Assembly (NCBI GenBank): GCA_025450075.1
Contig: JANWIC010000007.1
Span: 39,289-103,288 of the forward strand
Direction of reading: 5' to 3'
Origin: Patescibacteria group bacterium
GTDB taxonomy: Bacteria > Patescibacteriota > Dojkabacteria > JAKAPS01
Length of the DNA stretch: 64,000 bases
Position numbers and translations under genes: made by a program. Shown here in pieces: positions 17,508-30,800 of the stretch. The notes beneath the pieces were generated by a model, which had not been told where the DNA came from, searched no databases, and saw nothing but the letters and a program-made list of their open reading frames with translations. Position 1 is the stretch's first letter; the number at the start of each line of letters is the position of its first letter.

Positions 17508-18044
17508 TTATTGTGCTTTACTTAATGCATCTTGCAAGGATTGTATGAATGCCTGGCTGGAATCAGTTGCTCCAGAGACAATGTCGACATTTGCACTTTG
17601 AGCTTGAATAGCTTCTTGGGCTAAAATCGGATCGGCTTGTGAGTTTATATAAACTGATGTGGATCGGTCATTTGGCGCTTGCAAAAATGATATATTCGAA
17701 ATTTTTCCGTTTTTTACTGTTGTCTGGACTTGAATAATGCCATAAAATGCATCAGCTTGAGAACCTGTATACACACCATCTTTATACTTTCCAGAAGGAG
17801 TTGGAGTAGGTGTTGGAGTCGAAGTTGGTGTATCAGTTCCTGACTGTATCGATGTATCTGTTGGAGTTGGACTAGGAGATAGGCTTGGTGTTGTTGTCTG
17901 GGATGGAGAAGGTGATGGGACAATCTTTTGAGCGATTAATGCTGGTTGTCCAAGTCCGCTGTTTCTTGCAAAAACAGAGTAGATGAGAAACATTGTTATT
18001 ACACTTCCTGATAATAGTAGTTTTTTTCCCATAATATTATACAT
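17508..18044 (-). CDS. FMN-binding domain protein (NqrC/RnfG-like FMN_bind) with a signal/TM and a Pro/Ser/Thr-rich linker
   Basis: DIVSGATDSSQAF matches the flavinylation motif (S/T-G-A-T-x-S-S). Long PSPSPSQTTTPSLSPSPTPT... linker. Confidence 0.7.
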   Translation of the reverse strand: MYNIMGKKLLLSGSVITMFLIYSVFARNSGLGQPALIAQKIVPSPSPSQTTTPSLSPSPTPTDTSIQSGTDTPTSTPTPTPTPSGKYKDGVYTGSQADAFYGIIQVQTTVKNGKISNISFLQAPNDRSTSVYINSQADPILAQEAIQAQSANVDIVSGATDSSQAFIQSLQDALSKAQ

Positions 18045-18790
18045 TACAAATGTACAAATGATTGAAAATTGGAGGTATAGGTTGCTATCCCTTCCTTATC
18101 AACCATATATCCCTCATATCCTTCAAGATTTTCAATAAATATGATACCATCTTTTCCCATGGCAAATGCTGCAGTTGCAAACCTGTCTGCTTCATAAATA
18201 TTTGGACCAATAACACTTAAGCTGACTATATCAGTTATGTCACAATCTCTATCTTTTGGGTTGTATATATGGTTTCCTCTAAAATATGTGCCGGATGTTG
18301 CAATAGCAGTATCATGTAAAGTGATTTTTTTGATGATCTCATCCCTTTTAAAAGGATTCCTAATCCCGACTATCCATTCCTCATCGTTTTCATTTTTCCC
18401 TGACACTTGGATATCTCCTCCCGCTTCTATATAGAAGTTGTGGAATCCTTTGGAATGTAACTTTTTAGCTACTTCAAAAATTGCCCATCCTTTTACGAGT
18501 CCCGCTGGCTCTAAACTTCCATCTTTTCTATGTATATCAAAAAATCCATTAGTAGCAAGTCTGGTTTGTTCGCATAAAGTAAGAATATTACGCATTTCAC
18601 TGCTGTAATAGTCTTCTTTTTCTTCCCCTTTATTAATTTTGCTTATTTCACTATCTTCTTTGTAGGTGCTGAAGCGATTATCTATCTTATGGAAATATGA
18701 AAATATTTCATTGAAAATATTCTCATCAGTTTTACTATCAAGTATTTCAATTGTAATGGGAAGACCCATGATCCATTCTGTTTTTTTCAT
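18044..18790 (-). CDS. apbE: ApbE-family FAD:protein FMN transferase (short form, no signal peptide detected)
   Basis: MGLPITIEI start, IEAGGDIQVSG, ATSGTYFR and VIGPNIYEADRFATAAF motifs. Start and stop overlap the flanking FMN-bind genes. Confidence 0.7.
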   Translation of the reverse strand: MKKTEWIMGLPITIEILDSKTDENIFNEIFSYFHKIDNRFSTYKEDSEISKINKGEEKEDYYSSEMRNILTLCEQTRLATNGFFDIHRKDGSLEPAGLVKGWAIFEVAKKLHSKGFHNFYIEAGGDIQVSGKNENDEEWIVGIRNPFKRDEIIKKITLHDTAIATSGTYFRGNHIYNPKDRDCDITDIVSLSVIGPNIYEADRFATAAFAMGKDGIIFIENLEGYEGYMVDKEGIATYTSNFQSFVHL

Positions 18791-19227
18791 TATTTTGCTT
18801 GTTGTAATGCAATTTGGAGTGATGCAGCAAATGCCTGGCTGGATGCTGTTGCTCCTGAAACTATATCAACATTCGGACTCTGAGCTTGAATTGCTTCCTG
18901 AGCAAGATTAGGATCAGCTATAGTATTAATGGCAACTGACCGAATAGCTTCATTTGGTGCTTGAAGGAAAGATACATTTGCTATTTTACCATTTTTGATT
19001 GTTGATTGTACTTGGATTATCCCATAAAAAGCATTCTCGGCAGAACCTGTATAGACTCCATCTTTATATGGTGGAGAAAGAGAACTGGTTCTGGCTGCCT
19101 GAGCATTTGAATTGTTCGAGAAGAAACTATGATTAGCTAACATGACTAAAAATATTCTTCCCTGATCTTGATACAGAACTGCTCCAAAACTTAAGAGTAT
19201 TGCAAGTATAGTAAGAATCTTTTTCAT
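18790..19227 (-). CDS. FMN-binding domain protein (paralog of 17508..18044)
   Basis: DIVSGATASSQAF. The C-terminal ~100 aa is ~70% identical to the downstream paralog. It has an N-terminal signal/TM. Confidence 0.7.
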   Translation of the reverse strand: MKKILTILAILLSFGAVLYQDQGRIFLVMLANHSFFSNNSNAQAARTSSLSPPYKDGVYTGSAENAFYGIIQVQSTIKNGKIANVSFLQAPNEAIRSVAINTIADPNLAQEAIQAQSPNVDIVSGATASSQAFAASLQIALQQAK

Positions 19228-19579
19228 AAACTTTTCTCATACAACTCATTGTACGGTATTATGATGAAAATTTTATGAGAAGCTGGAAGAAATGAAACTG
19301 GTTGGTAATTTAAAGAGATGCCATAGCACTTCTAATACATGGGTGGCTATATTTGAACTTCAAACAATTACTATATAAAGAGGATCTTAAAAAACTTTCT
19401 ATGTTTTGTATAGTTTAGAACTATGAGAAGTAATTGAAACTTCAAAAATCAGATATTATGCATAATTATTTGTCTAGTTTTGTAAATGATCAGTTTTTAT
19501 TCAAATATAAATTTCTTAAAGAAATTAACTTGTGTTTTCAATGAGGATTGTTTAGAATAAAATAACAACTCAACTATTT

Positions 19580-21112
19580 ATGGCAGACCAACAATCCCCT
19601 GAACAAGATACTCCGAGAATAAATACCCCTTATTCAGGTGATAGTAGAAGTGAATTAGTTACAACTGATAGTGGAGATCCTGTCGTTTCGAGAAGAACTA
19701 TTTTAAAAAAAGGAGTTTGGGGTGCATTAGGAATTGTTTTGTTAGGAATGGGTGTAGAGGGTTGGAGGAATGCTGGGAGATTAGTACAATTAGCAGAAGA
19801 GGGTTTAGATCCTATCATGTATAACGAGACTCAAGAAGGGGATACAACAGTTATAGAATTCTTTGGATACAACCTTTCAACATTACAACATGTTCTCGAT
19901 GAAAAATTAAGATCAGGAACAAATCCTATCAAAGTAAAAATTCTTCAACCAGAGTTATATAATACTAAGAAGGAAGCCCGATCAGTAAAGGTACCTACAA
20001 GACCCGGACAACCAGAAGAATATGGAGAAGGAATAGCTGGATTATTTATTAAATGTAGACCAAGTGAGACAGGAGAGAAAAGAAAAGTAACAATAATCGG
20101 AGCAAATCCTCCAGAGCCAATAGCACTAGAATTTAATGGAAATGCTTCGATAGAACACCGAAAGAGTCCTCGATTAATTCATCAATCCCATTATGGAATC
20201 TATGCCGAAGGTGTAGATTTAACCATTGAAAATCTTGACTTTTATCAAGGAGATGGAAGTGGAACTAACAATACAGAAAGAGCACATATTTTTGCATATA
20301 ATTCTGAAATTCGCATTAATAATGTAGGGGTTGATGGAAGTTCTGATAATATCGGAACTTCTAATGTCCTTTCACCTGATGGGAAAGTTGTAGGCAAGAC
20401 CTCAAAAGGTTTATCCGGAATCTATCTATTAGATTGTTCTCAAGCTACGATTCAAAAAGTAACATTGACTAAAACGAGTTGGGATGGAATAACTTTGAAT
20501 GGTACAAATGGTAATATAGATAGTGCAACAATTAAAGGAACAATGCTTGATTCAAGTGCGGGAATTGGAATTACACAAAATGGGAGACTCCTGCCTAAGA
20601 ACACTGTCATTATAAGAAACACTCAAGTTGTGTCTCGAATTAAAGGAATTATTGGATTTGATAATGTAGATATTTCGCTTGAGGAAGTTAGTATTGATTA
20701 TAATGGAATGCCTGATAAATCTTATGGAATTGCTGCAACTGGATCAGAACAAACCCCATTAAATTTTTCTATGAAAAGATCTAGCATTAATGGCTTGGGT
20801 GATAATATATTGGCAACCAATGCTCATATAGATAATTCACTCTTTGTTTGCCATGCAGGGAGTAGAGATACAATTGCTTTGTATGGGAGATTTGCAGGTG
20901 ATTTAATTACAATAACACCTGATTCATTTAGAGTTTTTAGAAACAACACAGTACAAGTAAATAGTAGTTTATATACTGACTGTAATTATGAACCAGTGAA
21001 ATTGTTTGATGTGCTTTTCCAAATTTGGTCTTTTTCAATTAAGGATAGTGATTCAAAAGCCTTGTATGAGCAATTCTTAGCACAAGGTAATAAGTTTGAA
21101 ATAGTGGATTAG
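19580..21112 (+). CDS. Tat-signal secreted right-handed beta-helix (pectate-lyase-fold) protein
   Basis: Twin-arginine motif SRRTILKKGVWGALGIVLLG. Repeated NG/DG-rich parallel beta-helix turns (ITLNGTNGNIDSATIKGT...). Confidence 0.55.
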   Translation: MADQQSPEQDTPRINTPYSGDSRSELVTTDSGDPVVSRRTILKKGVWGALGIVLLGMGVEGWRNAGRLVQLAEEGLDPIMYNETQEGDTTVIEFFGYNLSTLQHVLDEKLRSGTNPIKVKILQPELYNTKKEARSVKVPTRPGQPEEYGEGIAGLFIKCRPSETGEKRKVTIIGANPPEPIALEFNGNASIEHRKSPRLIHQSHYGIYAEGVDLTIENLDFYQGDGSGTNNTERAHIFAYNSEIRINNVGVDGSSDNIGTSNVLSPDGKVVGKTSKGLSGIYLLDCSQATIQKVTLTKTSWDGITLNGTNGNIDSATIKGTMLDSSAGIGITQNGRLLPKNTVIIRNTQVVSRIKGIIGFDNVDISLEEVSIDYNGMPDKSYGIAATGSEQTPLNFSMKRSSINGLGDNILATNAHIDNSLFVCHAGSRDTIALYGRFAGDLITITPDSFRVFRNNTVQVNSSLYTDCNYEPVKLFDVLFQIWSFSIKDSDSKALYEQFLAQGNKFEIVD

Positions 21113-21561
21113 AGAATTATATTTAATGCAAAAATATAGCAATAAAGAAGGAGTTAGGGAAGTACCAATTGCAGGCGGGCCAGAGGGAGTTAAATTAAAT
21201 ATAATTTCTACACCTCCCGAAATTATGGAATTTGGCTATCATGAAAATACCTGTTCTAATGAAACTCCAGCTGGATTAAAATAGTGTGCTTAATTAATAG
21301 AACAAACTGAACATGTTGAATCATTTTGGGGAGTTGGTTATCCAATTAAACTTGGAGTACAAGCCGCAATTTTTCAGCCTGAAAAAGATTTTGGTCTAGT
21401 AGATATATCTTTGCAAAATATTTTCTATGCAATGATATTATTTGCTACATTTAAAAGCGGATTTACTATTCTAAAAAAGGTTATCATTGGATAAATAGGA
21501 AGATTAAAGGATATGTTGGAAAATAGAGAATACTTACAAAAACTTAAACAATAAAGATTAA

Positions 21562-22356
21562 TTATGAAATTTTTCGAATTTTTAATAGTTCTTCAAAATC
21601 GTTTTGATTAAATTCAATATCTACTTTCAAAGCTTTAGCATGTTTTCTAAATAATTCAAAGAGTTCCATAAGAGATTGAAGTAAAGAACCTTCTTCTCTT
21701 GATCTGATCTGTTCTCTATTAGAAAAGTCAATTAAAGTAACAATTGATTTCTTGTCTTGGGTGAAATGAAATAAAATATTGCCAGGATTTGGATCATACA
21801 TCCATATTCCTGTATTCAAAAATAAAGTAGCAGCTTTCCTAAATGCAATTGCATATGTGTCACTTATCAATTTCGTTGTTGCTATTCCATCTTTTACATA
21901 TCGTTCAATTGTTGGTCCTAAATGGGGACAAACAAATGCATCCAATTCTTGATTACCCACATTAACTTTAACCATTCGAAATTTAGCGCAGGCTTCTTGT
22001 TTAACTCCACACCAATTTGCAGCTTTTAAGCCATACTTGCATGCTTGAGTAAGTTGGTTTAAAAGTATGTGGTATCTTTTGCTTTCAATTGAATCAAGAT
22101 AGAACGGATTAACAATTTTAAGCCATTCTTCAGAGGTTGGATTAAAGAAAATTATGTAATAGTCTGGTGTATCATTAATTGGCTCATTATGGTTAGTGAT
22201 ATGTCCTTTAACTTGGTACCAAGTTGAAGTTCTTCCTTCAACTTGAATTGGGATAGCGGCTATTGATTCCCAAGCATTGGCAGTAACCTGTACTGTATCC
22301 AAATCAATTGAGTCGGTTTCACTGCTCAATAATAATTGTTCATTAACATTTGACAT
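21562..22356 (-). CDS. atypical protein-kinase-like (PKL) fold protein (Kdo/RIO/APH-like catalytic loop)
   Basis: MYDPNPGNILF (cf. HGDLHPGNIL) and LIDFSN (DFG-like). Confidence 0.45.
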   Translation of the reverse strand: MSNVNEQLLLSSETDSIDLDTVQVTANAWESIAAIPIQVEGRTSTWYQVKGHITNHNEPINDTPDYYIIFFNPTSEEWLKIVNPFYLDSIESKRYHILLNQLTQACKYGLKAANWCGVKQEACAKFRMVKVNVGNQELDAFVCPHLGPTIERYVKDGIATTKLISDTYAIAFRKAATLFLNTGIWMYDPNPGNILFHFTQDKKSIVTLIDFSNREQIRSREEGSLLQSLMELFELFRKHAKALKVDIEFNQNDFEELLKIRKIS

Positions 22357-22415
22357 TTTTATAAATTTTGAGATCTATAGTATAATATAAAAAATTTGAA
22401 AGTAATTAAAGTGTC

Positions 22416-22652
22416 ATGGAAAATCATATCTGGGTATGTGAATGTATAAATGGAAGTGATGGTGAAATAGTTATTAGAACACCATTATCTGAGGAACAAT
22501 TAGCTAGTTTGAAAAATAATCCTGATATTCCTGAAACAATATGTAATAATGGTGATATTGTTTGTCAGGATTGTGGGATAACTTTTGGTAACAAACCTAG
22601 AAAACATACTTCTCGAAATTCTGTTGCTGATATCGAAAATAATCTCGAATAG
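22416..22652 (+). CDS. small zinc-ribbon protein (78 aa)
   Basis: CECINGSDGE...CNNGDIVCQDC; lies between the divergent kinase-like genes. Confidence 0.35.
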   Translation: MENHIWVCECINGSDGEIVIRTPLSEEQLASLKNNPDIPETICNNGDIVCQDCGITFGNKPRKHTSRNSVADIENNLE

Positions 22653-22797
22653 GGTTAAAAGATATTGATGCAACAAAAGATTCTTAATGATAACCTCAGA
22701 TTAATTTTTATATTCAAAGTGTTTTAGAATCTTTCTTATAATAATAGATAGGGACTATATTTAGAGCAATATTCCATTTAAATGATATAAACCAAAC

Positions 22798-23799
22798 ATG
22801 CATACAAGTTCTTCAGGTAATATAAGCGAATATGACAAGTATCTTGCTTCGCTGCATAGTAATTTAGTAACTCCGGATGAGTTTATTCGTGATGTTGTAA
22901 AAGAGGGAAGTGGTAGTGAGATGCTTGAAAAGCATCGCATTATTGCAGGAGAAGTAAGTGAGGTATATAAAATCATTTTAGTAAATCATAAGGAATTAAT
23001 ACTCAGGATTTCAAGAAGTGGCTATCCTAACTTCCAGCAGGAAATATGGGCAATTAAACAAGTAAAGCAAGTTGGTGTTTCTGCTCCTACAATTTTATTG
23101 GTGAAATACTTACCAATAAATGGCAAAGAGTATTCTTTTTGTCTAATGGAGAAGCTAGAAGGAGGACCTCTCGAAAGAGGGGATATAAAGTTTTGGGAAT
23201 ATACTGCAGAAGAACAAGCAGCATATATACGACAAGCAGGGGAGCTGCTATCAAGGATTCATTCAATAAAAACGAATGGCTTTGGATGGATCATTGGAGA
23301 AGGAAAACCTCAATATGAAAATTCTGAAGATTTAATAAATGAATGGTTAAATAAAGTAGAACGATTCCAAAAGATTATGGAATCTCAAAATTTTGCCAAA
23401 ACTAAAATTGATAGAGCAATAAAAATCGTTTCTGAGCTAAAAGAAGTATATAAAAATGTCGTTCCCTCTCTTAATCATGCAGACTTTGGTCATAAGCATT
23501 TTATGGTAATTGGAGATAAAATAGTTGGGATAATAGATTGGGGTTCGGTAAGAAGTGATTCAGCTGTTTATGACTTTGCTTGTTGGGATTATTGGTTTGG
23601 ACATTATATTCCGACTAAATGGTTGCAGGAAGGCTACGTGAACAAAGATGTTTTTGACGATTCTTTTGAGGATATCCTGCATAGAATCCGTATTATGAAA
23701 GGATTGGAGGTTTTGGACTGGTATGATCGAGAACATTATATACAGATGGTAAAAGATGCCCTAGAAAAACTTCAAAAAGATATACAATACTTTAGTTAA
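22798..23799 (+). CDS. phosphotransferase-family (APH/choline-kinase-like) protein
   Basis: LNHADFGHKHFMV...GIIDWGSVRSD resembles the APH catalytic loop and DFG region. The loop Asn is replaced by His. Confidence 0.55.
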   Translation: MHTSSSGNISEYDKYLASLHSNLVTPDEFIRDVVKEGSGSEMLEKHRIIAGEVSEVYKIILVNHKELILRISRSGYPNFQQEIWAIKQVKQVGVSAPTILLVKYLPINGKEYSFCLMEKLEGGPLERGDIKFWEYTAEEQAAYIRQAGELLSRIHSIKTNGFGWIIGEGKPQYENSEDLINEWLNKVERFQKIMESQNFAKTKIDRAIKIVSELKEVYKNVVPSLNHADFGHKHFMVIGDKIVGIIDWGSVRSDSAVYDFACWDYWFGHYIPTKWLQEGYVNKDVFDDSFEDILHRIRIMKGLEVLDWYDREHYIQMVKDALEKLQKDIQYFS

Positions 23800-24540
23800 T
23801 CAATATAAATACATTAAAAATCTATAGCAACATCTATCAATAACTTAGGTTTCATAACTGAAGTAATACTTTGGCCTATGTAATAATGGAGATGTACTAT
23901 CATACATAATAAAGAAAGCTATTACAATAATTCCAACTGCAACAAAATCAGAAATCACCACGCATGTAACTACATCAACTTCTACACCTACTACACTCCC
24001 CTCATTGAATAAAAGTATCTCGCAATCTGTTGGACACATCCTCCAGGGAATGATGCTAAGGAATCTTTAAAATAATGAGCGGTGCAAACTGTACGATTGT
24101 TGTGTAATATAAAGTCTGGTTCAAGTAAAGCAGCAGGATTGACTTCTCATTATTGTCTAGTAAATGGAATTTGGAATAAGGATGCCATCAATAAAAAAAA
24201 TTAATTGCAGTTCGTACTTCAATAAAAAGAATAGTACGAAGTAAAATTCGTGCGCATAATGGATATGGAATCATCACTATTCTTAAAAAAGCCCTATATA
24301 ATAAGGCGTTTGGAAAAACATCAATTAGTCTTTTTGATATATTACATAAAAGAAAGATATATTAAGCATTATTCTTCAGAAAATATAAGTTATAACTATT
24401 CATCAAAGTGCTAAATAAACATAGAATACTCTAACCGCTTCTGCAGGTCTTATTCTTACAATGGGAGAAAGTAAAACCACCATTTCATGATGCATAGTGC
24501 ATATGTATGGTGTATAATTCAGCTATATAATTACTATAGT

Positions 24541-25191
24541 ATGAAGCTAATCGATGTTCCACTATATTTGCAAACTCCTGGTTCAATTGATTGTGGTCCA
24601 GCTTGTATACAAATGCTCTATGATCATTTCCTAGGAAAGAAGATTGATATTGAAGAGGTAAAGAAACAGTTGGATTATACTGAAGTTGGAACTACGCTTT
24701 ATCAGAATGGCTCTCAATTATTAAAGGAAGGACTAAAAGTAACAGCAATTTCAGCAAACCCATTAGTTTTTCCAGGTAATACATGGGACCAATTAAAAAC
24801 TAATGAAGATGTAAGAGAATATATACAAAAAAAATATGATGATTCATATTTAGATGATCATTTTAAGTTAATATATAGAACTCTTTTGCAATTTATTGAT
24901 GATGGGGGAGACTTTAAAGTTAAAATTCCAGATTTTAATGATATAAAAGATGCGATTGATAGGGATGCTATTGTATGTGCATTAAACTATACTCAGCCTT
25001 TAGGGGAAAATGAAGGAACTTTTCACTTTGTTTTAGTTACAGGATATGATGAGGGAAGAGTTTTTATAAATAACTCATGGCCATTATCTCAAAAGCAGGC
25101 ATGGTTTCCTATTGATAAATTCTTATTTGCTGTGCATAGTTCAGCGCTTGGAGATGCTGATAATGCAAGCTTTTTGATAGTTTCAAAATAA
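24541..25191 (+). CDS. C39-like papain-fold cysteine peptidase domain protein (stand-alone)
   Basis: Q..GSIDCGPACIQML (Gln/Cys oxyanion-catalytic pair) and HFVLVTGYD...N (His/Asp). Confidence 0.55.
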   Translation: MKLIDVPLYLQTPGSIDCGPACIQMLYDHFLGKKIDIEEVKKQLDYTEVGTTLYQNGSQLLKEGLKVTAISANPLVFPGNTWDQLKTNEDVREYIQKKYDDSYLDDHFKLIYRTLLQFIDDGGDFKVKIPDFNDIKDAIDRDAIVCALNYTQPLGENEGTFHFVLVTGYDEGRVFINNSWPLSQKQAWFPIDKFLFAVHSSALGDADNASFLIVSK

Positions 25192-25213
25192 TATATTTCA
25201 ACTGTATTAATAA

Positions 25214-25579
25214 CTACATCTTTTTAATCACTAAAGATCCTAATAATCCAGTTTCACCTGCAATATCATTTTTAACTATTTGAAAAGAGGAATTAGAAGT
25301 AATAATTCCTCTTTTCAAATATTCTTCAATTAGGGGATATAATTCATCAAAATGTCTAGCAATTTTACCACCAATAATAATTCTTTCAGGATCAAGAACA
25401 GAAATGATATTATAAATGACAATAGCAATATTTTTTGTCACTTTTTTTATTATATCCGTTGCAATAGGGTCAGATCTTGTATAACCATCAATAATATCTG
25501 AAACAGTAATCAGCGAAATATCTTCAAAAGTAAACTTTTGGATATTATCTCCCTTTCTTAAAAGTTCTTTAGCAAGTCC
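25214..25579 (-). pseudogene. truncated ROK-family sugar kinase/regulator, C-terminal ~120 aa only
   Basis: ...IAIVIYNIISVLDPERIIIGGKIARHF...DIAGETGLLGSLV is the ROK C-terminal half. The frame is closed by a TAA at 25580-25582, 40 nt from the ssrA 3' end. The N-terminal ATP-binding half is absent. Confidence 0.5.
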
Positions 25580-25620
25580 TTATGCAGTTTTTGAGTATGT
25601 TGGGCAGTGTGAATTTAAAG

Positions 25621-26045
25621 TGGTGGAGATGGGGGGAGTCGAACCCCCGTACAAGACAAAAGAACAGATATAGTACTACAAGCTTACTTAGCTTCGTTTT
25701 TTTACATTCAGATCCTCAAAGCTAAGAAAAAAGATCATGAAAGGATATAATTAAGTACATATCAAGTTGCTATATCAGACAGCATGACATATACCTGACT
25801 GTTTTTTTGCCCTACTATTCCCATCAGGCGAGGTTTAGTAAAACACCAGCGATCTAATTTAGATATATGCTGGAGTATAAGCTGGAGCTCTGAAGAAATT
25901 AACTACAGAAGCTACTGTTGCCTGTACTTTTTGACTGAATGTGTTTGCATTTATGTCATTGGTACGTTTTTTTACGAAGTTATTACCATAATCTTCGGCT
26001 TGCTATATAAGCCCTATTTACCCTGGCGAAACCAAATACATCCCC
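25621..26045 (-). ncRNA. ssrA: tmRNA (ssrA)
   Basis: 5' GGGGATGTATTTGGTTTCGCCAGGG (cf. conserved GGGG...GGAUUCGACGGG). 3' GGGGGTTCGACTCCCCC-CATCTCC-A-CCA. The acceptor has a G3:U70 (Ala identity) pair and an encoded CCA. A candidate tag ORF starts GCA AAC (A N...). Confidence 0.75.
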
Positions 26046-26067
26046 ATAGGTATAGACTTTTTTCAAT

Positions 26068-26715
26068 GTGCTGAGTGATAGTATTATATCAAATATTTAC
26101 GAAATTCTCAATTATGTGCTATTATTTCTAAGTACATCATTAACTGTCCATAACGTGAAGAATACGATTAATCTTCTATCCTTCAAAGAAGGTCCTCTCA
26201 CCTTTTGGGAGAAATTCTATATCTGGGCACTTTCAATTGGTAGGTATATCATTATCATTACAGAATTGATTGTCCTGATAGGCTTTTTCTTGAAATTCAA
26301 GGTTGATAATGATATCGCCAATATTAAGACGGATTTGAATGCAAATGTTGAGGTTTTAAAAGAGAACCAGGCGAAAGAAAATGAAATCAAGATATATCAA
26401 AAAAGGATTAGTACGCAGGAAGCTATCATGAATAACCAGTCTCCCATCTATTCTCTTTTAACTCACACTATTTCTCTTATCCCTCCAACAGTTAAAGTTG
26501 ATTCTCTTAATTTCCATAACAAGGGACAGATCTTGATCCAGGGAAGTATTACAGGAACGGGAAATGTCCAGTTGAATACGCTGCAAAACCTTGCCGATAC
26601 GTATCGTGGAGATAAGGCATATGTGAATGTTGCTGAAACGAATGTCTCGACAAATTCTCAGGAAAATCTGACCAATTTTTCAATTACTATGAACGTTAAT
26701 ACTTTAGGCCAATGA
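26068..26715 (+). CDS. PilN-like type IV pilus assembly protein (TM + coiled coil)
   Basis: Single TM followed by a charged coiled-coil region and then a Ser/Thr/Asn-rich domain. Assigned from architecture only. Confidence 0.35.
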   Translation: MLSDSIISNIYEILNYVLLFLSTSLTVHNVKNTINLLSFKEGPLTFWEKFYIWALSIGRYIIIITELIVLIGFFLKFKVDNDIANIKTDLNANVEVLKENQAKENEIKIYQKRISTQEAIMNNQSPIYSLLTHTISLIPPTVKVDSLNFHNKGQILIQGSITGTGNVQLNTLQNLADTYRGDKAYVNVAETNVSTNSQENLTNFSITMNVNTLGQ

Positions 26716-27341
26716 TCACATACAATAAATTAAGAAAAACAGTAACAGTAAATTTCCAAGATATAAGGACAAGGACTTATACTATTATGGCCTTTACATT
26801 TCTGACAGTTCTTGTGCTTGCTGTATTTGCCATCCGTCCCGTTGTATTCAAACTATCTGATGAAATCGGGCTATACAATGATTTACAGCAAAAAGACCAG
26901 CAGGTAAAACAAAATCTTTCGGACCTTGCCCAGGCTGAAAATGTGTATGAAGGGGCGGTGAAAGATAATATTAATATACTGAATACAGCTCTTCCGAGAA
27001 CTCCTGAAACAGGCCCTTTATTTGCAAATATAAATGCAATTGCTGGTTCCCATAATGTGGAGATTGATTCTACAAATTTCCAATCTACAACCCAGATCAC
27101 TTCCGAGCTGCAGAATGTGGATCCGAGTTTATTACCTCACTTTGTCGGTGCTGCACCGTTGTATTTCTCAGTATCGGGAAGCGGGGCACAATCCGATGTT
27201 GCTGCATTTGTATCTGATCTGGAAAATTATCCGCGTACCTTTACTATTTTAAACATTACCCTAAGCAACTCATATGATAAAACTGGAAATGTTATTTCCC
27301 AGCAATACTCAATACTCGGGTATGTATTTTACCTACTTTAG
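26712..27341 (+). CDS. PilO-like type IV pilus assembly protein
   Basis: TM, then a coiled coil (LQQKDQQVKQNLSDLAQAE), then a periplasmic domain. Overlaps the previous gene by 4 nt. Confidence 0.35.
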   Translation: MITYNKLRKTVTVNFQDIRTRTYTIMAFTFLTVLVLAVFAIRPVVFKLSDEIGLYNDLQQKDQQVKQNLSDLAQAENVYEGAVKDNINILNTALPRTPETGPLFANINAIAGSHNVEIDSTNFQSTTQITSELQNVDPSLLPHFVGAAPLYFSVSGSGAQSDVAAFVSDLENYPRTFTILNITLSNSYDKTGNVISQQYSILGYVFYLL

Positions 27342-27343
27342 CT

Positions 27344-27598
27344 ATGAATAGAAAAAACGTCACATTCTTGCTGTTATCCTGTATCGTAGCGGTTATCTGG
27401 ATTGTATATACGGTATATTCAAACTTAACAGCAGTGGATTATACGACACAGGAAAATATCCCGGTTTCCTTATCTCCAATAAGTACGAATTTACATCTAG
27501 AGACTTTAAAGAAAGTAAACGCGTTAGGAGCGAATATTAAAGTGAGTAATCAGAGCCTGCAGCCGAGCAGTACACCGACTCCCACTCCTGGGTCATAA
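27344..27598 (+). CDS. small membrane protein (84 aa) with a Pro/Thr tail
   Basis: N-terminal TM; continues the pilN/O-like operon. Confidence 0.35.
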   Translation: MNRKNVTFLLLSCIVAVIWIVYTVYSNLTAVDYTTQENIPVSLSPISTNLHLETLKKVNALGANIKVSNQSLQPSSTPTPTPGS

Positions 27599-27810: not shown

Positions 27811-30800
27811 ATGGCCAATCCAAATACAGTATCCGATAAAGCAAAGAAAAAGTCAAAGGTAGGAGTGAAGCAAGCAGAGGGACATACATTACGAGTGGAT
27901 ATATCAAAATCCCATCTCGACATGCCGATACCAAATCTAGTAGAGGCGCAACTTCGATCATACAATGAATTTTTAGATAAAACTTTGATTGAAGTATTCA
28001 AAGAAATTTCACCTGTAGATGATAATACAGGAAAATTGTGGACTCTTGAGTTCATGAATGCAAGACTTGGAGATACTAATAGGATGCCTGTTGAAGCAAT
28101 GAGCAAAGGTTTATCATATGATGCTCCATTATTTTTCACTGCACGACTTATTAACAAGCATACCGGTGAAATTAAGGAACAAGAATTGTTCATTTGCGAT
28201 CTCCCTCTTATGACAAACAGAGGGACTTTCATTATTAATGGAAATGAAAGAGCAGTTGTTCATCAGATCATCCGATCAGAAGGTGTACTTTTTATTGAAT
28301 CAGGAGAAAAAAGTGAAGCGGGTCCTTTGTATCTTGCCAAACTTATCCCTGAACGGGGAGCTTGGTTTAACTTTGAATTGAACAAGCATGATGTTATATC
28401 TATCAAACTTGCTCCAAAACGCCCAAAAATTCCTATTACTGAACTCCTTCGGGTTCTGGGTTATTCTACAAACCAGGAAATATTGTCACTCTTTAGTGAT
28501 GTTGACAGAAACCCTGACCGAAAGTTCATTGAATCAACTCTGTTAAAAGATCCGACTACAACAAAAGAAGAAGCTGTAATGGATATTTACAAAAAGCTTC
28601 GACCTGATGTAGCAACAACATATGATAATGCAAAAGCATTCATAGATAATATCTTTTTTAATGAAAGAAGAGTATATCTTGGAAAAACTGGACGATATCA
28701 ACTGAACAGAAAATTAGGAATTGACACTCCAGTTAGCTCAGAAAACTTTGTTTTGTATCCAAGTGATATTGTAGCTGTCATTAAGAGATTAATTGAAGTA
28801 AACAACGGAGACAAGCTTCCGGATGATATGGACAGTATGGAGAACCGAAGAGTAAAAAGCGTCGGAGAACTCGTAGCTGACTTTATCCGGGTTGGTGTCA
28901 GAAGAGTCGAAAAAAATATTAAAGACAGAATGAGTATCCATGCATCAGATGAGCTTTTAGTTCCTGCAACACTAGTTAGTACAAGACCTATTGCTGCGGC
29001 ATTAAATGAGTTTTTTGGTTCATCTGAAGTATCTAGATATATGGACCAGGAAAATGTCTTATCAGAACTTGGAAACAAGAGAAGACTGACATCAGGCGGT
29101 CCTGGTGGACTTACAAAAGAACGTGCAACGTTCTCAGTTCGAGATACCCATTATTCACAATACGGCAGGCTTTGCCCTATTGAGACTCCTGAAGGAGCAA
29201 ACATTGGTATTGTTAACCATCTTGCAGTTTATGCAAGAATTAATGAATATGGATTTTTAGAGACCCCTTACCGAAAAGTAATTACCTCATTCAACTTCCA
29301 AGAATTAAAGAAAGATCATAGCACAGATGAAATTGTTGCTATGATGCAAAACAGGATAAGCAGAGAAGATGTGGAGCATGATGGAAAAACCGTTATCTCT
29401 GCAGGAGAATATGTAAAATCAAAAGCACAAGCACAAGAAATTATGAAAGCTGTAGAAGCCTTCAACATCAAGCCATATGTAACAGATGATATTACCTACC
29501 TGAATGCAGGTGAGGAATATAATGTGAATATTACTTCAGCTAGTGTTGAGCGAGATGAATATGCAAACGTTGTCGCTGATCTCGTTCCTATCCGTTATAG
29601 AGGATCATTCAATATTGGATCAACTGAACATTTGCGATATATTGATGCAGCATCTATCCAAATTGCTGGAACAGGATTTGCATTAGTGCCATTTGCAGCA
29701 TCTGATGAGTCACAACGAACTCTTATGGCTGCAAACATGCAACGACAAGCAATTCCATTGATAAATCCTGAATCACCAATTGTAGGAACAGGATTTGAAG
29801 AAGTTGTAGCAAGAAATTCAGGAAGAGCAGTTTATGCTCCTGAAGATTGTCTCGTTGAATACGCAGATGCACAACGGGTTGTTATCAAATTAAAAGATGC
29901 AAAAGGAAAGAATACAAAACAGGAATTCAAGTTAGAGAAATTTGTTGGAACTAACCAGAATACTTCATTCTCACAAAAAGTACTTGTTAAGACCAACCAG
30001 GAAATCAAAAAAGGAGAAATTCTCATTGACGGACCTTGTATGGACAACGGTGAACTTGCTTTGGGAAAGAATATTACTGTTGCATATATGCTCTGGGAAG
30101 GATTCAACTACGAAGACGGAATTGTCATATCAGAAAGATTAGTTAAGGATGATATCCTTACCTCAATCCATGTAACTGAATACTCTCAAGAAATCAGAGA
30201 GACCCGTCTTGGAGATGAACTATTAACGTATGATATCCCTGGTGTAAGTGAACATGCACTTCGAAACCTTGACCAGAACGGAATTGTCCGAATCGGAGCT
30301 GAGGTAAAAGCAGGAGATGTTCTTGCAGGTATTATTGCACCAAAAGGAGAAACAGAATTAACTGCAGAAGAAAGACTTCTTCGTGCCATATTCGGAGAAT
30401 ATGCACGTGATGTCCGAGACAACTCACTCAAAGTTCCAAACGGAGAAGTAGGTATCGTTACAAACGTACAAGTCCTTTCAAAAGAAGCTGGTGATAAGTT
30501 ATCACCTGGCGTATTAAAAGTAGTAAAAGTATGGGTTGCAAAAACTCGAAAGATTACTATTGGAGATAAGCTTGCAGGACGACATGGAGATAAAGGAGTC
30601 ATTTCAAAGATATTACCGGTAGAAGATATGCCATATATGGCAGATGGAACTCCTGTTGATATCATCCTTTCCCCATTAGGCTTGACTAAACGTATGAACA
30701 TGGGACAGCTTCTTGAAACGCATCTTGGATTACGGGCACAAAAGCTTGGAGTAAAATTTGGTGTACCGATCTTTTCAAAGGTTGATACTGACAGATTAGA

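Follow-up and report, generated by a model that had tools for sequence, protein, structure and literature searches.

Islands and prophages with tyrosine integrases, such as CP4-57 in E. coli and VPI-1 in Vibrio, are the classical elements of the tmRNA gene and are reportedly treated in Williams' 'Traffic at the tmRNA gene'. The ssrA islands (ssrA-GIs) of Dehalococcoides comprise ssrA, a serine recombinase of ~540 aa and 20-bp repeats that start in the T-loop; some of them have no integration module, and a fixed region further downstream is described as 'devoid of ssrA-GI signatures' (McMurdie et al. 2011, PMC3146451). Little is known about gene gain and loss in the tiny genomes of the CPR (candidate phyla radiation)/Patescibacteria.

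We analysed a 64-kb stretch of DNA from a CPR bacterium (hereafter the window), in which a gene-poor segment of 6.4 kb (19.2-25.6 kb) adjoins ssrA. As in Dehalococcoides, a variable region lies directly downstream of the tmRNA gene, which is present in a single copy, and the genome is small and streamlined; a hallmark of those islands, a large serine recombinase of ~540 residues beside ssrA, is shared by one relative (locus L083). However, the window itself has neither recombinase nor repeat, the six-gene integration module is seen in no relative, and the host belongs to the CPR/Patescibacteria instead of the Chloroflexota; the state proposed here for the window corresponds to the signature-less fixed region. 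With the classical islands the segment shares the position at the 3' end of ssrA, whose last 23 nt occur unchanged in 80 loci of the public viral-contig collection IMG/VR, but it lacks a P4-type or other tyrosine integrase, an att duplication and phage genes. We interpret the segment, with a probability of about one half, as a variable region that is lineage-specific and in decay, situated at a recombination and integration hot spot that the clade has at the ssrA 3' end, the ROK-family gene having been cut at the ssrA flank.

Layout and composition of the segment

The first-pass annotation had described an accessory segment bounded by ssrA and a truncated ROK gene. This description holds, with an intact ssrA, the C-terminal third of the ROK gene and the expected gene content (Table 1), and the segment starts 1-41 nt past the CCA end of ssrA. 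Inside it fall the window's three largest intergenic gaps. Where two AT-rich, gene-free stretches of 440 bp were noted earlier, there are three, of 449, 687 and 352 nt; Pfam and Rfam searches of these gaps gave no match. Coding density is 72.5%, compared to 94.9% in the rest of the window.

Table 1. Features of the segment and its flanks, in window coordinates.
Feature	Position	Strand	Evidence or remark
Left conserved flank, ApbE + FMN_bind gene	18044..19227	-	homologues 3.5 kb from pilN in relative L084
Gene-free stretch	19228..19579	.	352 nt, GC 0.256; left edge of the variable segment
Right-handed beta-helix protein, 510 aa	19580..21112	+	Beta_helix 2.5e-7
Gene-free stretch	21113..21561	.	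449 nt, GC 0.30
Orphan ORF, 264 aa, weakly kinase-like	21562..22356	-	ABC1 E 0.014, sub-threshold
Cys-rich ORF (CxC ... CxxC), 78 aa, putative Zn ribbon	22416..22652	+	GATA E 0.036, below threshold
APH-family (eukaryotic-like) kinase, 333 aa	22798..23799	+	PF01636 73 bits (cut-off 23), E 3.9e-20
Gene-free stretch	23800..24486	.	687 nt, GC 0.31; largest intergenic gap of the window
Stand-alone C39-like cysteine peptidase	24487..25191	+	Peptidase_C39_2 4.2e-9, Peptidase_C39 2.5e-8
ROK-family pseudogene remnant, C-terminal third only	25217..25579	-	stop-to-stop frame, 121 stop-free codons
Perfect 19-bp inverted repeat, 7-nt loop, inside the ROK remnant	25277..25321	.	-26 kcal/mol, z = -6.8
ssrA 3' trailer, ~21 nt, alignable with L082 (76% rpoB)	25600..25620	-	blastn + alignment
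ssrA (tmRNA)	25621-26045	-	ARAGORN; Rfam RF00023 125 bits, E 1.8e-48
Promoter-like site for ssrA	26083..26111	-	TTGAGA-17-TATAAT, extended TG, 11/12 matches; consensus match only
Right conserved flank, pilN-like + pilO-like + small ORF	26068..27598	+	rpoB then at 27811; synteny in relatives (loci in text); true start of the pilN-like gene probably near 26155

The GC content of the segment (0.322 compared to 0.365) is the lowest of any 6-kb stretch of the window, although much of this difference of ~4 points is due to the 27% of non-coding DNA. A comparison of composition had been proposed as a check; besides GC, the segment stands out in tetranucleotide distance (top ~10%), while its dinucleotide signature is unremarkable and the synonymous codon choice of all its genes is host-typical or above average for the window.

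According to a somewhat less probable reading, there was never an island: the segment would hold ordinary chromosomal genes, evolving fast and specific to the lineage, in a reduced CPR genome, the ROK gene would be one of many being lost, and its deletion next to ssrA would be coincidental. This is consistent with the host-typical codon usage and with the database status of the contig, since every protein checked is a singleton, including PilN and PilO of the core flank, so that being an orphan does not set the segment's genes apart. It accounts less well for the segment being the most AT-rich and gene-poor part of the window.

The truncated ROK gene and the search for mobility marks

The tmRNA gene is intact: it covers the full RF00023 model (1-374), its covariance-model score exceeds the threshold of 47 bits, the CCA end is encoded, and ARAGORN finds a tag ORF for a 29-residue tag, ANTFSQKVQATVASVVNFFRAPAYTPAYI. 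The promoter-like site lies ~37 nt upstream of its 5' end.

On the 3' side, as first annotated, a stop-bounded C-terminal ROK fragment lies close to the CCA end, with its frame beginning 41 nt beyond. It matches positions 186-290 of 294 of the Pfam ROK model (PF00480; E 7.6e-11) and, in ROK proteins of solved structure, aligns with the final ~100 residues, such as residues 209-316 of 326 of glucokinase 2qm1. Compared to ROK sugar kinases and regulators (2qm1, Mlc 1z6r), the remnant thus shares the C-terminal part with the I-I-G-G motif region, but the N-terminal ATPase half is missing entirely, as is the Zn-binding CxCGxxGC region. There is no room for the N-terminal two thirds at this position, since they would overlap the intact ssrA. 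Judged from its sequence, the remnant is a pseudogene fragment and no functional member of the family; a 75-aa 'ROK' protein, the product of the earliest possible start (GTG at 25441), should be annotated as a pseudogene remnant. It is also the ORF with the lowest GC in the window (0.263). An exhaustive HMMER search yielded no homologue above 34% identity, and a word-based search with the fragment recovered only itself. The ROK frame contains no stops, compared to 3-18 in the other frames (probability by chance ~1e-5), and has thus not been through long neutral decay: either the gene was truncated fairly recently or its frame remains under constraint. The stable hairpin inside the remnant may serve as a terminator between the C39 gene and ssrA, which converge there.

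The site of the cut was located by comparison with L082. Positions 121-648 of that locus align by blastn with positions 25600-26125 of the window at 70% identity and the homology stops at 25600, placing the breakpoint between about 25580 and 25600, i.e. ~20-40 nt from the ssrA end. A breakpoint this close to the ssrA 3' end speaks against a coincidental deletion. The 5' two thirds of the ROK gene were most likely lost by deletion or by illegitimate or site-specific recombination with one endpoint at this breakpoint, for example during the imprecise loss of an ssrA-integrated element, whose recombinase would have left along with it; that an element once integrated here was behind the truncation is our inference. 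On this reading, the present segment is long-resident DNA and not a mobile element, with host-like codons, a low coding density and a single clear pseudogene. The remaining genes may equally be old cargo, or native neighbours left after deletion of an island together with the 5' part of the ROK gene.

The content of the window bears no mark of a mobile element. Neither the 28-nt nor the 16-nt ssrA end recurs in the 64 kb with up to 3 mismatches, and the best Smith-Waterman score for such a repeat is 22, compared to a mean of 23 in shuffled sequences; applied to the relatives, this test gave a positive result for L085 and a marginal one for L180. When all window ORFs were searched with Pfam and NCBIfam, they revealed no integrase or recombinase, at the ssrA junction or elsewhere, and a six-frame tblastn search of the window for a relic of the L083 recombinase gave only noise at E values up to 50. 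No phage or defence genes were matched in the window by PHROG and PADLOC, and no phage or plasmid DNA matching it was found. The first-pass observation by eye of no integrase and no direct repeat matching the ssrA 3' end is thereby borne out, and the same absences agree with the reading in which no island ever existed.

They also speak against the idea that the segment is a recently acquired integrative island, or what is left of such a prophage, with an att repeat and an integrase that simply escaped notice; this idea is largely refuted and very improbable. The position directly 3' of ssrA and the lowest GC of the window are in its favour, as are the IMG/VR loci carrying the 23-nt end, 32 of which have no full tmRNA gene according to ARAGORN, a program that also missed the genuine tmRNAs of L085 and L180. 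Against it stand the exhaustive mismatch and local-alignment searches without a repeat, the six-frame searches without a recombinase, the fully ameliorated codon usage and the lack of PHROG matches. The first-pass annotation had named a composition that cannot be told from that of the core, combined with a missing repeat, as grounds for refutation. Judged by this rule, the idea of a recent island comes close to being refuted; what is left standing is at most an island that is old, fixed or mostly deleted. Its proposal of a degraded island at the tmRNA 3' end survives as far as the variable locus, the conserved flanks, the cut ROK gene and the hot spot in relatives are concerned, but finds no counterpart in recombinase, repeat, phage, plasmid or defence homology, or codon usage. 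The neighbouring genes should therefore not be labelled island or prophage in annotation.

The ssrA locus in relatives

The loci available for comparison come from distant relatives, with rpoB 57-76% identical. The order ssrA (minus strand), pilN, pilO and small ORF is kept in L082, L083, L085, L086/87 and L180, and rpoB comes next in each of these loci but L180, where none was found downstream. The DNA beyond the ssrA 3' end is different in each of the five lineages that are readable there: L083 has CRISPR-Cas and a recombinase, and L085 a GIY-YIG nuclease and Cu-resistance genes; in L180 it is a Fic gene, in L086 ychF. The L082 contig ends 138 nt past ssrA. Homologues of the six segment genes were not found in the relatives' loci, nor was an empty site. 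The comparison of the ssrA flank suggested earlier thus reveals unique content between conserved flanks. Flanks that are conserved in other lineages around content that is not speak against the absence of any island, although differing content is also expected from ordinary synteny decay because the relatives are so distant. The closest relative, L081 (84% rpoB), has a longer contig with unrelated genes upstream of rpoB, and its pilO does not adjoin rpoB. The ssrA-pilN adjacency is absent from L084, from L177 and from 32 of the 33 metagenomic pilN loci obtained by a scan with a three-sequence PilN alignment, the exception being L180.

In L083, a large serine recombinase of 541 codons, with a full Resolvase domain and one in-frame TAG, overlaps the ssrA 3' end with its last codons and is adjacent to CRISPR-Cas. 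Its detected domains are Resolvase and Zn_ribbon_recom only, which do not establish orthology to DsiB/CcrB. A scan of viral contigs revealed no relatives of this enzyme. L085 carries a significant direct repeat of its own ssrA 3' end just downstream, and in L180 the ssrA end is repeated, together with a hairpin, around a 155-aa ORF, with a borderline score of 33 compared to a null maximum of 29. The abutting recombinase, the clear repeat and the borderline one demonstrate that recombination targets the ssrA 3' end in this Dojkabacteria-like CPR clade. The first two of these marks also count against a purely coincidental deletion in the window.

A bolder interpretation, which we regard as unlikely, is that the segment represents what remains, fixed and without its recombinase, of an ssrA island of the Dehalococcoides serine-recombinase type, and that the clade as a whole offers such elements a landing pad at its tmRNA 3' ends, one element (that of L083) carrying CRISPR-Cas. 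If so, a mechanism described until now in Dehalococcoides would extend to ultra-small CPR genomes and would point to a route by which CPR bacteria exchange defence and accessory genes. The finding in the window is by itself ordinary and of modest interest; together with the relatives, the locus suggests that the tmRNA 3' end is a site of gene turnover in one CPR clade, marked by a serine recombinase and att-like scars.

Genes carried by the segment

The stand-alone C39-like peptidase of the first-pass annotation is confirmed by both Pfam models (PF13529, 37.5 bits with a cut-off of 24; PF03412, 34.3 bits with a cut-off of 22). Its likely start is Met19 (24541), it is not fused to an ABC transporter, and catalytic-type residues were recognised by inspection only (Cys in CGPAC, His in FHFVLV). 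One of the two genes called atypical kinase-like belongs to the APH/protein-kinase-like phosphotransferases and keeps catalytic-type motifs by inspection. The other, on the minus strand, has only a sub-threshold match to ABC1 (15 bits, cut-off 22.9) and a D-x4-N / I-D-F pattern seen by eye; it has no significant similarity to the APH gene, a PDB search was negative, and its single-sequence AlphaFold model (pLDDT 33) is unusable. The Cys-rich ORF reported as a Zn ribbon is present, although it matches no family.

It is improbable, but conceivable, that these genes form a functional accessory module, in which a secreted beta-helix enzyme or adhesin, the C39 peptidase, two kinase-fold proteins and the Zn-ribbon protein would act, e.g., in peptide maturation or signalling, with the gaps regulatory or coding for small peptides and the 75-aa ROK tail expressed. 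All five full ORFs are intact and host-like in codon usage, the C39 and APH genes retain their motifs, the ROK frame is free of stops, and promoter-like sites are present in the gaps. However, these sites are not enriched (37 compared to 36.8 in shuffles), the gaps are without Pfam or Rfam signal, and an ORF resembling a double-glycine precursor was not seen. Nor is the gene set conserved: homologues of the APH kinase (50-58% identity) are scattered over other CPR phyla in unrelated gene contexts, and those in L172 and L174-176 have none of the segment's neighbour genes alongside, already suggesting that the families do not co-occur elsewhere. A conserved cassette of C39, kinase and Zn-ribbon genes was rejected because the APH homologues elsewhere lack such neighbours. 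The stand-alone spread of this kinase family through CPR phyla in varied contexts is also what would be expected if the segment had never been an island.

The protein at the left end of the segment had been described as a Tat-exported beta-helix protein. This agrees with its Beta_helix match and with a twin-arginine motif, S-R-R-T-I-L-K followed by a hydrophobic stretch, recognised by inspection, from which export is predicted.

Truncation of a ROK gene at the 3' end of ssrA

The tmRNA gene ssrA scores 125 bits over the full RF00023 model, with an encoded CCA end according to Rfam; about 37 nt before its 5' end stands a strong promoter-like site, TTGAGA-17-TATAAT plus an extended TG. On the same minus strand, ssrA is followed by a 38-nt trailer, a TAA stop codon and a frame related to the ROK family, whose breakpoint lies about 20-40 nt or less from where ssrA ends. 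This frame has no in-frame stop, against 3-18 in the other frames (chance about 1e-5 at its base composition), and its GC of 0.263 is the lowest among the window ORFs. It aligns only with positions 186-290 of 294 of the Pfam ROK model, with residues 209-316 of 326 of the glucokinase 2qm1, and with residues ~195-315 of proteins of ~320 aa, all matches in an exhaustive HMMER search being at most 34% identical. As the ~185 missing N-terminal codons would need to overlap the intact ssrA, the ROK gene is truly truncated. The first-pass annotation, which had placed a C-terminal ROK fragment beside ssrA, is borne out by ARAGORN, Rfam, Pfam and the 2qm1 alignment.

The remnant contains, in frame, a perfect 19-bp inverted repeat whose arms enclose a 7-nt loop; its folding energy is -26 kcal/mol (z = -6.8). 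This hairpin may terminate transcription between the C39 gene and ssrA, which are convergent, or may instead have arisen by template-switch 'palindromisation'. Directly after its own end, the window ssrA has no hairpin, while the ssrA genes of two relatives' loci (L085 and L180) have one. The tag encoded by the window ssrA is long (29 residues) and ends in ...APAYTPAYI, an odd C-terminus that might alter protease recognition; the tags of the relatives' loci L082 and L083 (29 and 33 residues) both have the canonical ...ALA end.

Features of the window and of the relatives' loci (L handles)
Feature	Locus	Position	Strand	Remark
ssrA (tmRNA)	window	25621-26045	-	intact; ARAGORN and Rfam concordant
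tmRNA tag ORF	window	25862-25951	-	
ROK remnant frame	window	25217-25579	-	121 stop-free codons
Inverted repeat	window	25277-25321		
Beta-helix protein	window	19580-21112		
FMN_bind paralogues	window	17508-18044, 18790-19227		flank ApbE
pilN-like, pilO-like, small ORF	window	26068-27598		annotated pilN GTG start at 26068
Two higher-GC ORFs	L081	1-1007		
Serine recombinase	L083	6233-7858	+	
ssrA	L083	7837-8278	-	
CRISPR array	L083	4153-5167		14 units
tmRNA gene	L085	7481-7931		
Repeat of ssrA end	L085	7306-7326, 7480-7500		
tmRNA gene	L180	4432-4883		
Repeat of ssrA end	L180	3788-3830, 4402-4436		

Content and composition of the adjoining segment

Leftward from the ROK remnant, the segment (window 19.2-25.6 kb) carries a stand-alone C39-like peptidase gene, a 687-nt gap, an APH-family kinase gene, a 78-aa Cys-rich ORF, a 264-aa ORF, a 449-nt gap, a 510-aa beta-helix protein with the twin-arginine signal SRRTILK, and a 352-nt gap before the FMN_bind/ApbE pair. 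The peptidase, kinase, Cys-rich ORF and twin-arginine beta-helix protein are as first described. However, the second of two supposed kinase-like genes, the 264-aa ORF, is weakly supported, with a sub-threshold ABC1 match and nothing better, and the long gene-free stretches number three rather than two. These are the longest intergenic gaps of the 64-kb window and contain no protein or RNA family recognisable in Pfam and Rfam searches; coding density is 72.5% in the segment versus 94.9% in the rest of the window. In 90%-identity clustering, the other 11 members of the beta-helix protein's cluster are 55-57-aa peptides from many metagenomes, probably an artefact. The FMN_bind paralogues, 71-74% identical in DNA over ~280 nt, are a local tandem duplication, and their group with ApbE adjoins a 504-aa membrane reductase-like gene.

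With a GC of 0.322 versus 0.365 elsewhere, the segment is the lowest-GC 6-kb stretch of the window, and its tetranucleotide distance from the rest falls in the top tenth, a value reached by no other part than the rpoB/rpoC region. The segment is, however, ordinary in its dinucleotide signature, and the synonymous codon choice of each gene equals the window average or better, with GC3 within about 1-2 sd. The segment is unusual as a zone of decay, not as foreign DNA. Beyond ssrA, the pilN-like and pilO-like genes and the small ORF have the highest GC3 of the neighbourhood (0.32-0.41) and locally the least typical synonymous codon usage, more atypical than that of the supposed island genes; alignment with relatives suggests that pilN is probably annotated ~29 codons too early.

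Searches for mobility marks gave no signal. Even when 3 mismatches are allowed, the 64 kb contain no second copy of the terminal 28 or 16 nt of ssrA, and aligning the ssrA end and trailer locally with 15-25.56 kb gives a best score of 22, equal to the mean for shuffled queries. No window ORF or gap matched an integrase, tblastn of the window with a relative's recombinase gave only noise for a serine recombinase relic, and PHROGs, PADLOC, phage DNA and plasmid DNA searches returned no match. The initial reading likewise saw neither an integrase nor an ssrA repeat. A recent island is very improbable. A functional peptidase/kinase module is also unlikely: homologues of the APH kinase (50-58% identity; Levy-, Beckwith- and Kaiserbacteria and many metagenomes) are always stand-alone in unrelated contexts, with no conserved cassette around them and no sign that the segment genes travel together.

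The ssrA neighbourhood in relatives

The host is an uncultured CPR bacterium whose rpoB matches carry Dojkabacteria or Patescibacteria labels and whose proteins, where checked, are database singletons. Anchoring on rpoB homologues gave six related lineages (57-84% rpoB identity), and a metagenome scan with PilN gave one more. L081 and L082 come from samples ERR11571144 and ERZ27245399, and L083 is contig_84278 of sample ERZ25039480. Minus-strand ssrA followed by pilN, pilO and the small ORF is present in L082, L083, L085 and L086/87 (76%, 64%, 59% and 57% rpoB identity), with rpoB next, and in L180, where rpoB was not found downstream; the ssrA-pilN-pilO arrangement is absent from L084, L177 and 32 of 33 metagenomic pilN loci. 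ApbE/FMN_bind lie 3.5 kb from pilN in L084, so both flanks of the segment recur elsewhere. While pilN, pilO, ApbE and FMN_bind do have homologues in the relatives' loci, all six segment genes lack them in every locus examined. In L081, the closest relative (84%), two unrelated ORFs directly upstream of rpoB replace pilN/pilO, reflecting a genuine rearrangement or else chimerism of the Logan contig.

Beyond the ssrA 3' end, every lineage carries different DNA. L086/87 continue with ychF and housekeeping genes, and the L082 contig stops 138 nt after ssrA, its similarity to the window reaching only 21 nt past the gene. In L083, the last ~20 nt of a 541-codon large serine recombinase gene overlap the ssrA 3' end; the product combines a complete Resolvase domain with a Zn-ribbon and the catalytic motif YARKS, and the gene is interrupted by one in-frame TAG. 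Its neighbours are a CRISPR array with a 36-nt repeat, cas2/cas1/cas4 and RuvC-like ORFs; the block is possibly a CRISPR-Cas-bearing element that integrated at ssrA in a CPR genome. In L085, 21 nt (GATTCCCGCCATCTCCACCAG) from the mid T-loop of ssrA through CCA are perfectly repeated ~155 nt downstream (score 42, shuffle maximum 28). This repeat looks like an att-type scar; after it come genes for a GIY-YIG nuclease, a B-box protein and copper resistance. In L180, copies of the ssrA end and a terminator-like hairpin stand on either side of one 155-aa orphan ORF (33 versus 29, the weakest of the three scars); a Fic/DOC gene follows, and the layout resembles the insertion of one gene at ssrA. Neither the tmRNA gene of L085, found by Rfam (123 bits), nor that of L180, a putative gene proposed from end-motif matches and 70% similarity to L085, was picked up by ARAGORN.

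Integration scars and the origin of the segment

The features of L083, L085 and L180 are marks of site-specific integration at ssrA, and in this clade the 3' end of that gene is a hot spot of recombination. These marks closely resemble the ssrA islands of Dehalococcoides, with a ~540-aa serine recombinase (DsiB) adjoining ssrA, 20-bp repeats and insertion in the T-loop (PMC3146451); some of those islands have no integration module, and a fixed region that bears no signatures also occurs (PMC3146451). Further copies of the ssrA 3' end are up to 100 kb distant in Dehalococcoides.

With a probability of about one half, we favour the following reading: the segment would be a variable region of the ssrA hot spot, old, fixed and in decay, and a deletion or recombination event with an endpoint at the ssrA flank would have cut ROK. 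An element would have integrated at ssrA and later been imprecisely lost along with its recombinase, plausibly truncating ROK. The decayed island first proposed here is partly supported: it is consistent with the variable locus and the scars in relatives, but the window itself lacks mobility signatures and its codon usage is host-like. The main rival, by which the segment owes its shape to the normal loss of genes from a reduced genome and never involved an element, would fit the latter and is somewhat less likely than the favoured reading. Judged against relatives as distant as these, the surviving genes could be either ancient cargo or native neighbours. As a decaying variable region, the segment is probably a new, degenerate example of the known tmRNA-adjacent variable regions or islands. 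The more interesting lead lies in the relatives, with their serine-recombinase-type ssrA elements, one of them beside a CRISPR-Cas locus.

An exact match to the last 23 nt of the window ssrA is present in 80 IMG/VR loci, none from this clade. ARAGORN finds no complete tmRNA gene in 32 of the 80, some of which may hold a full gene because it also missed those of L085 and L180.
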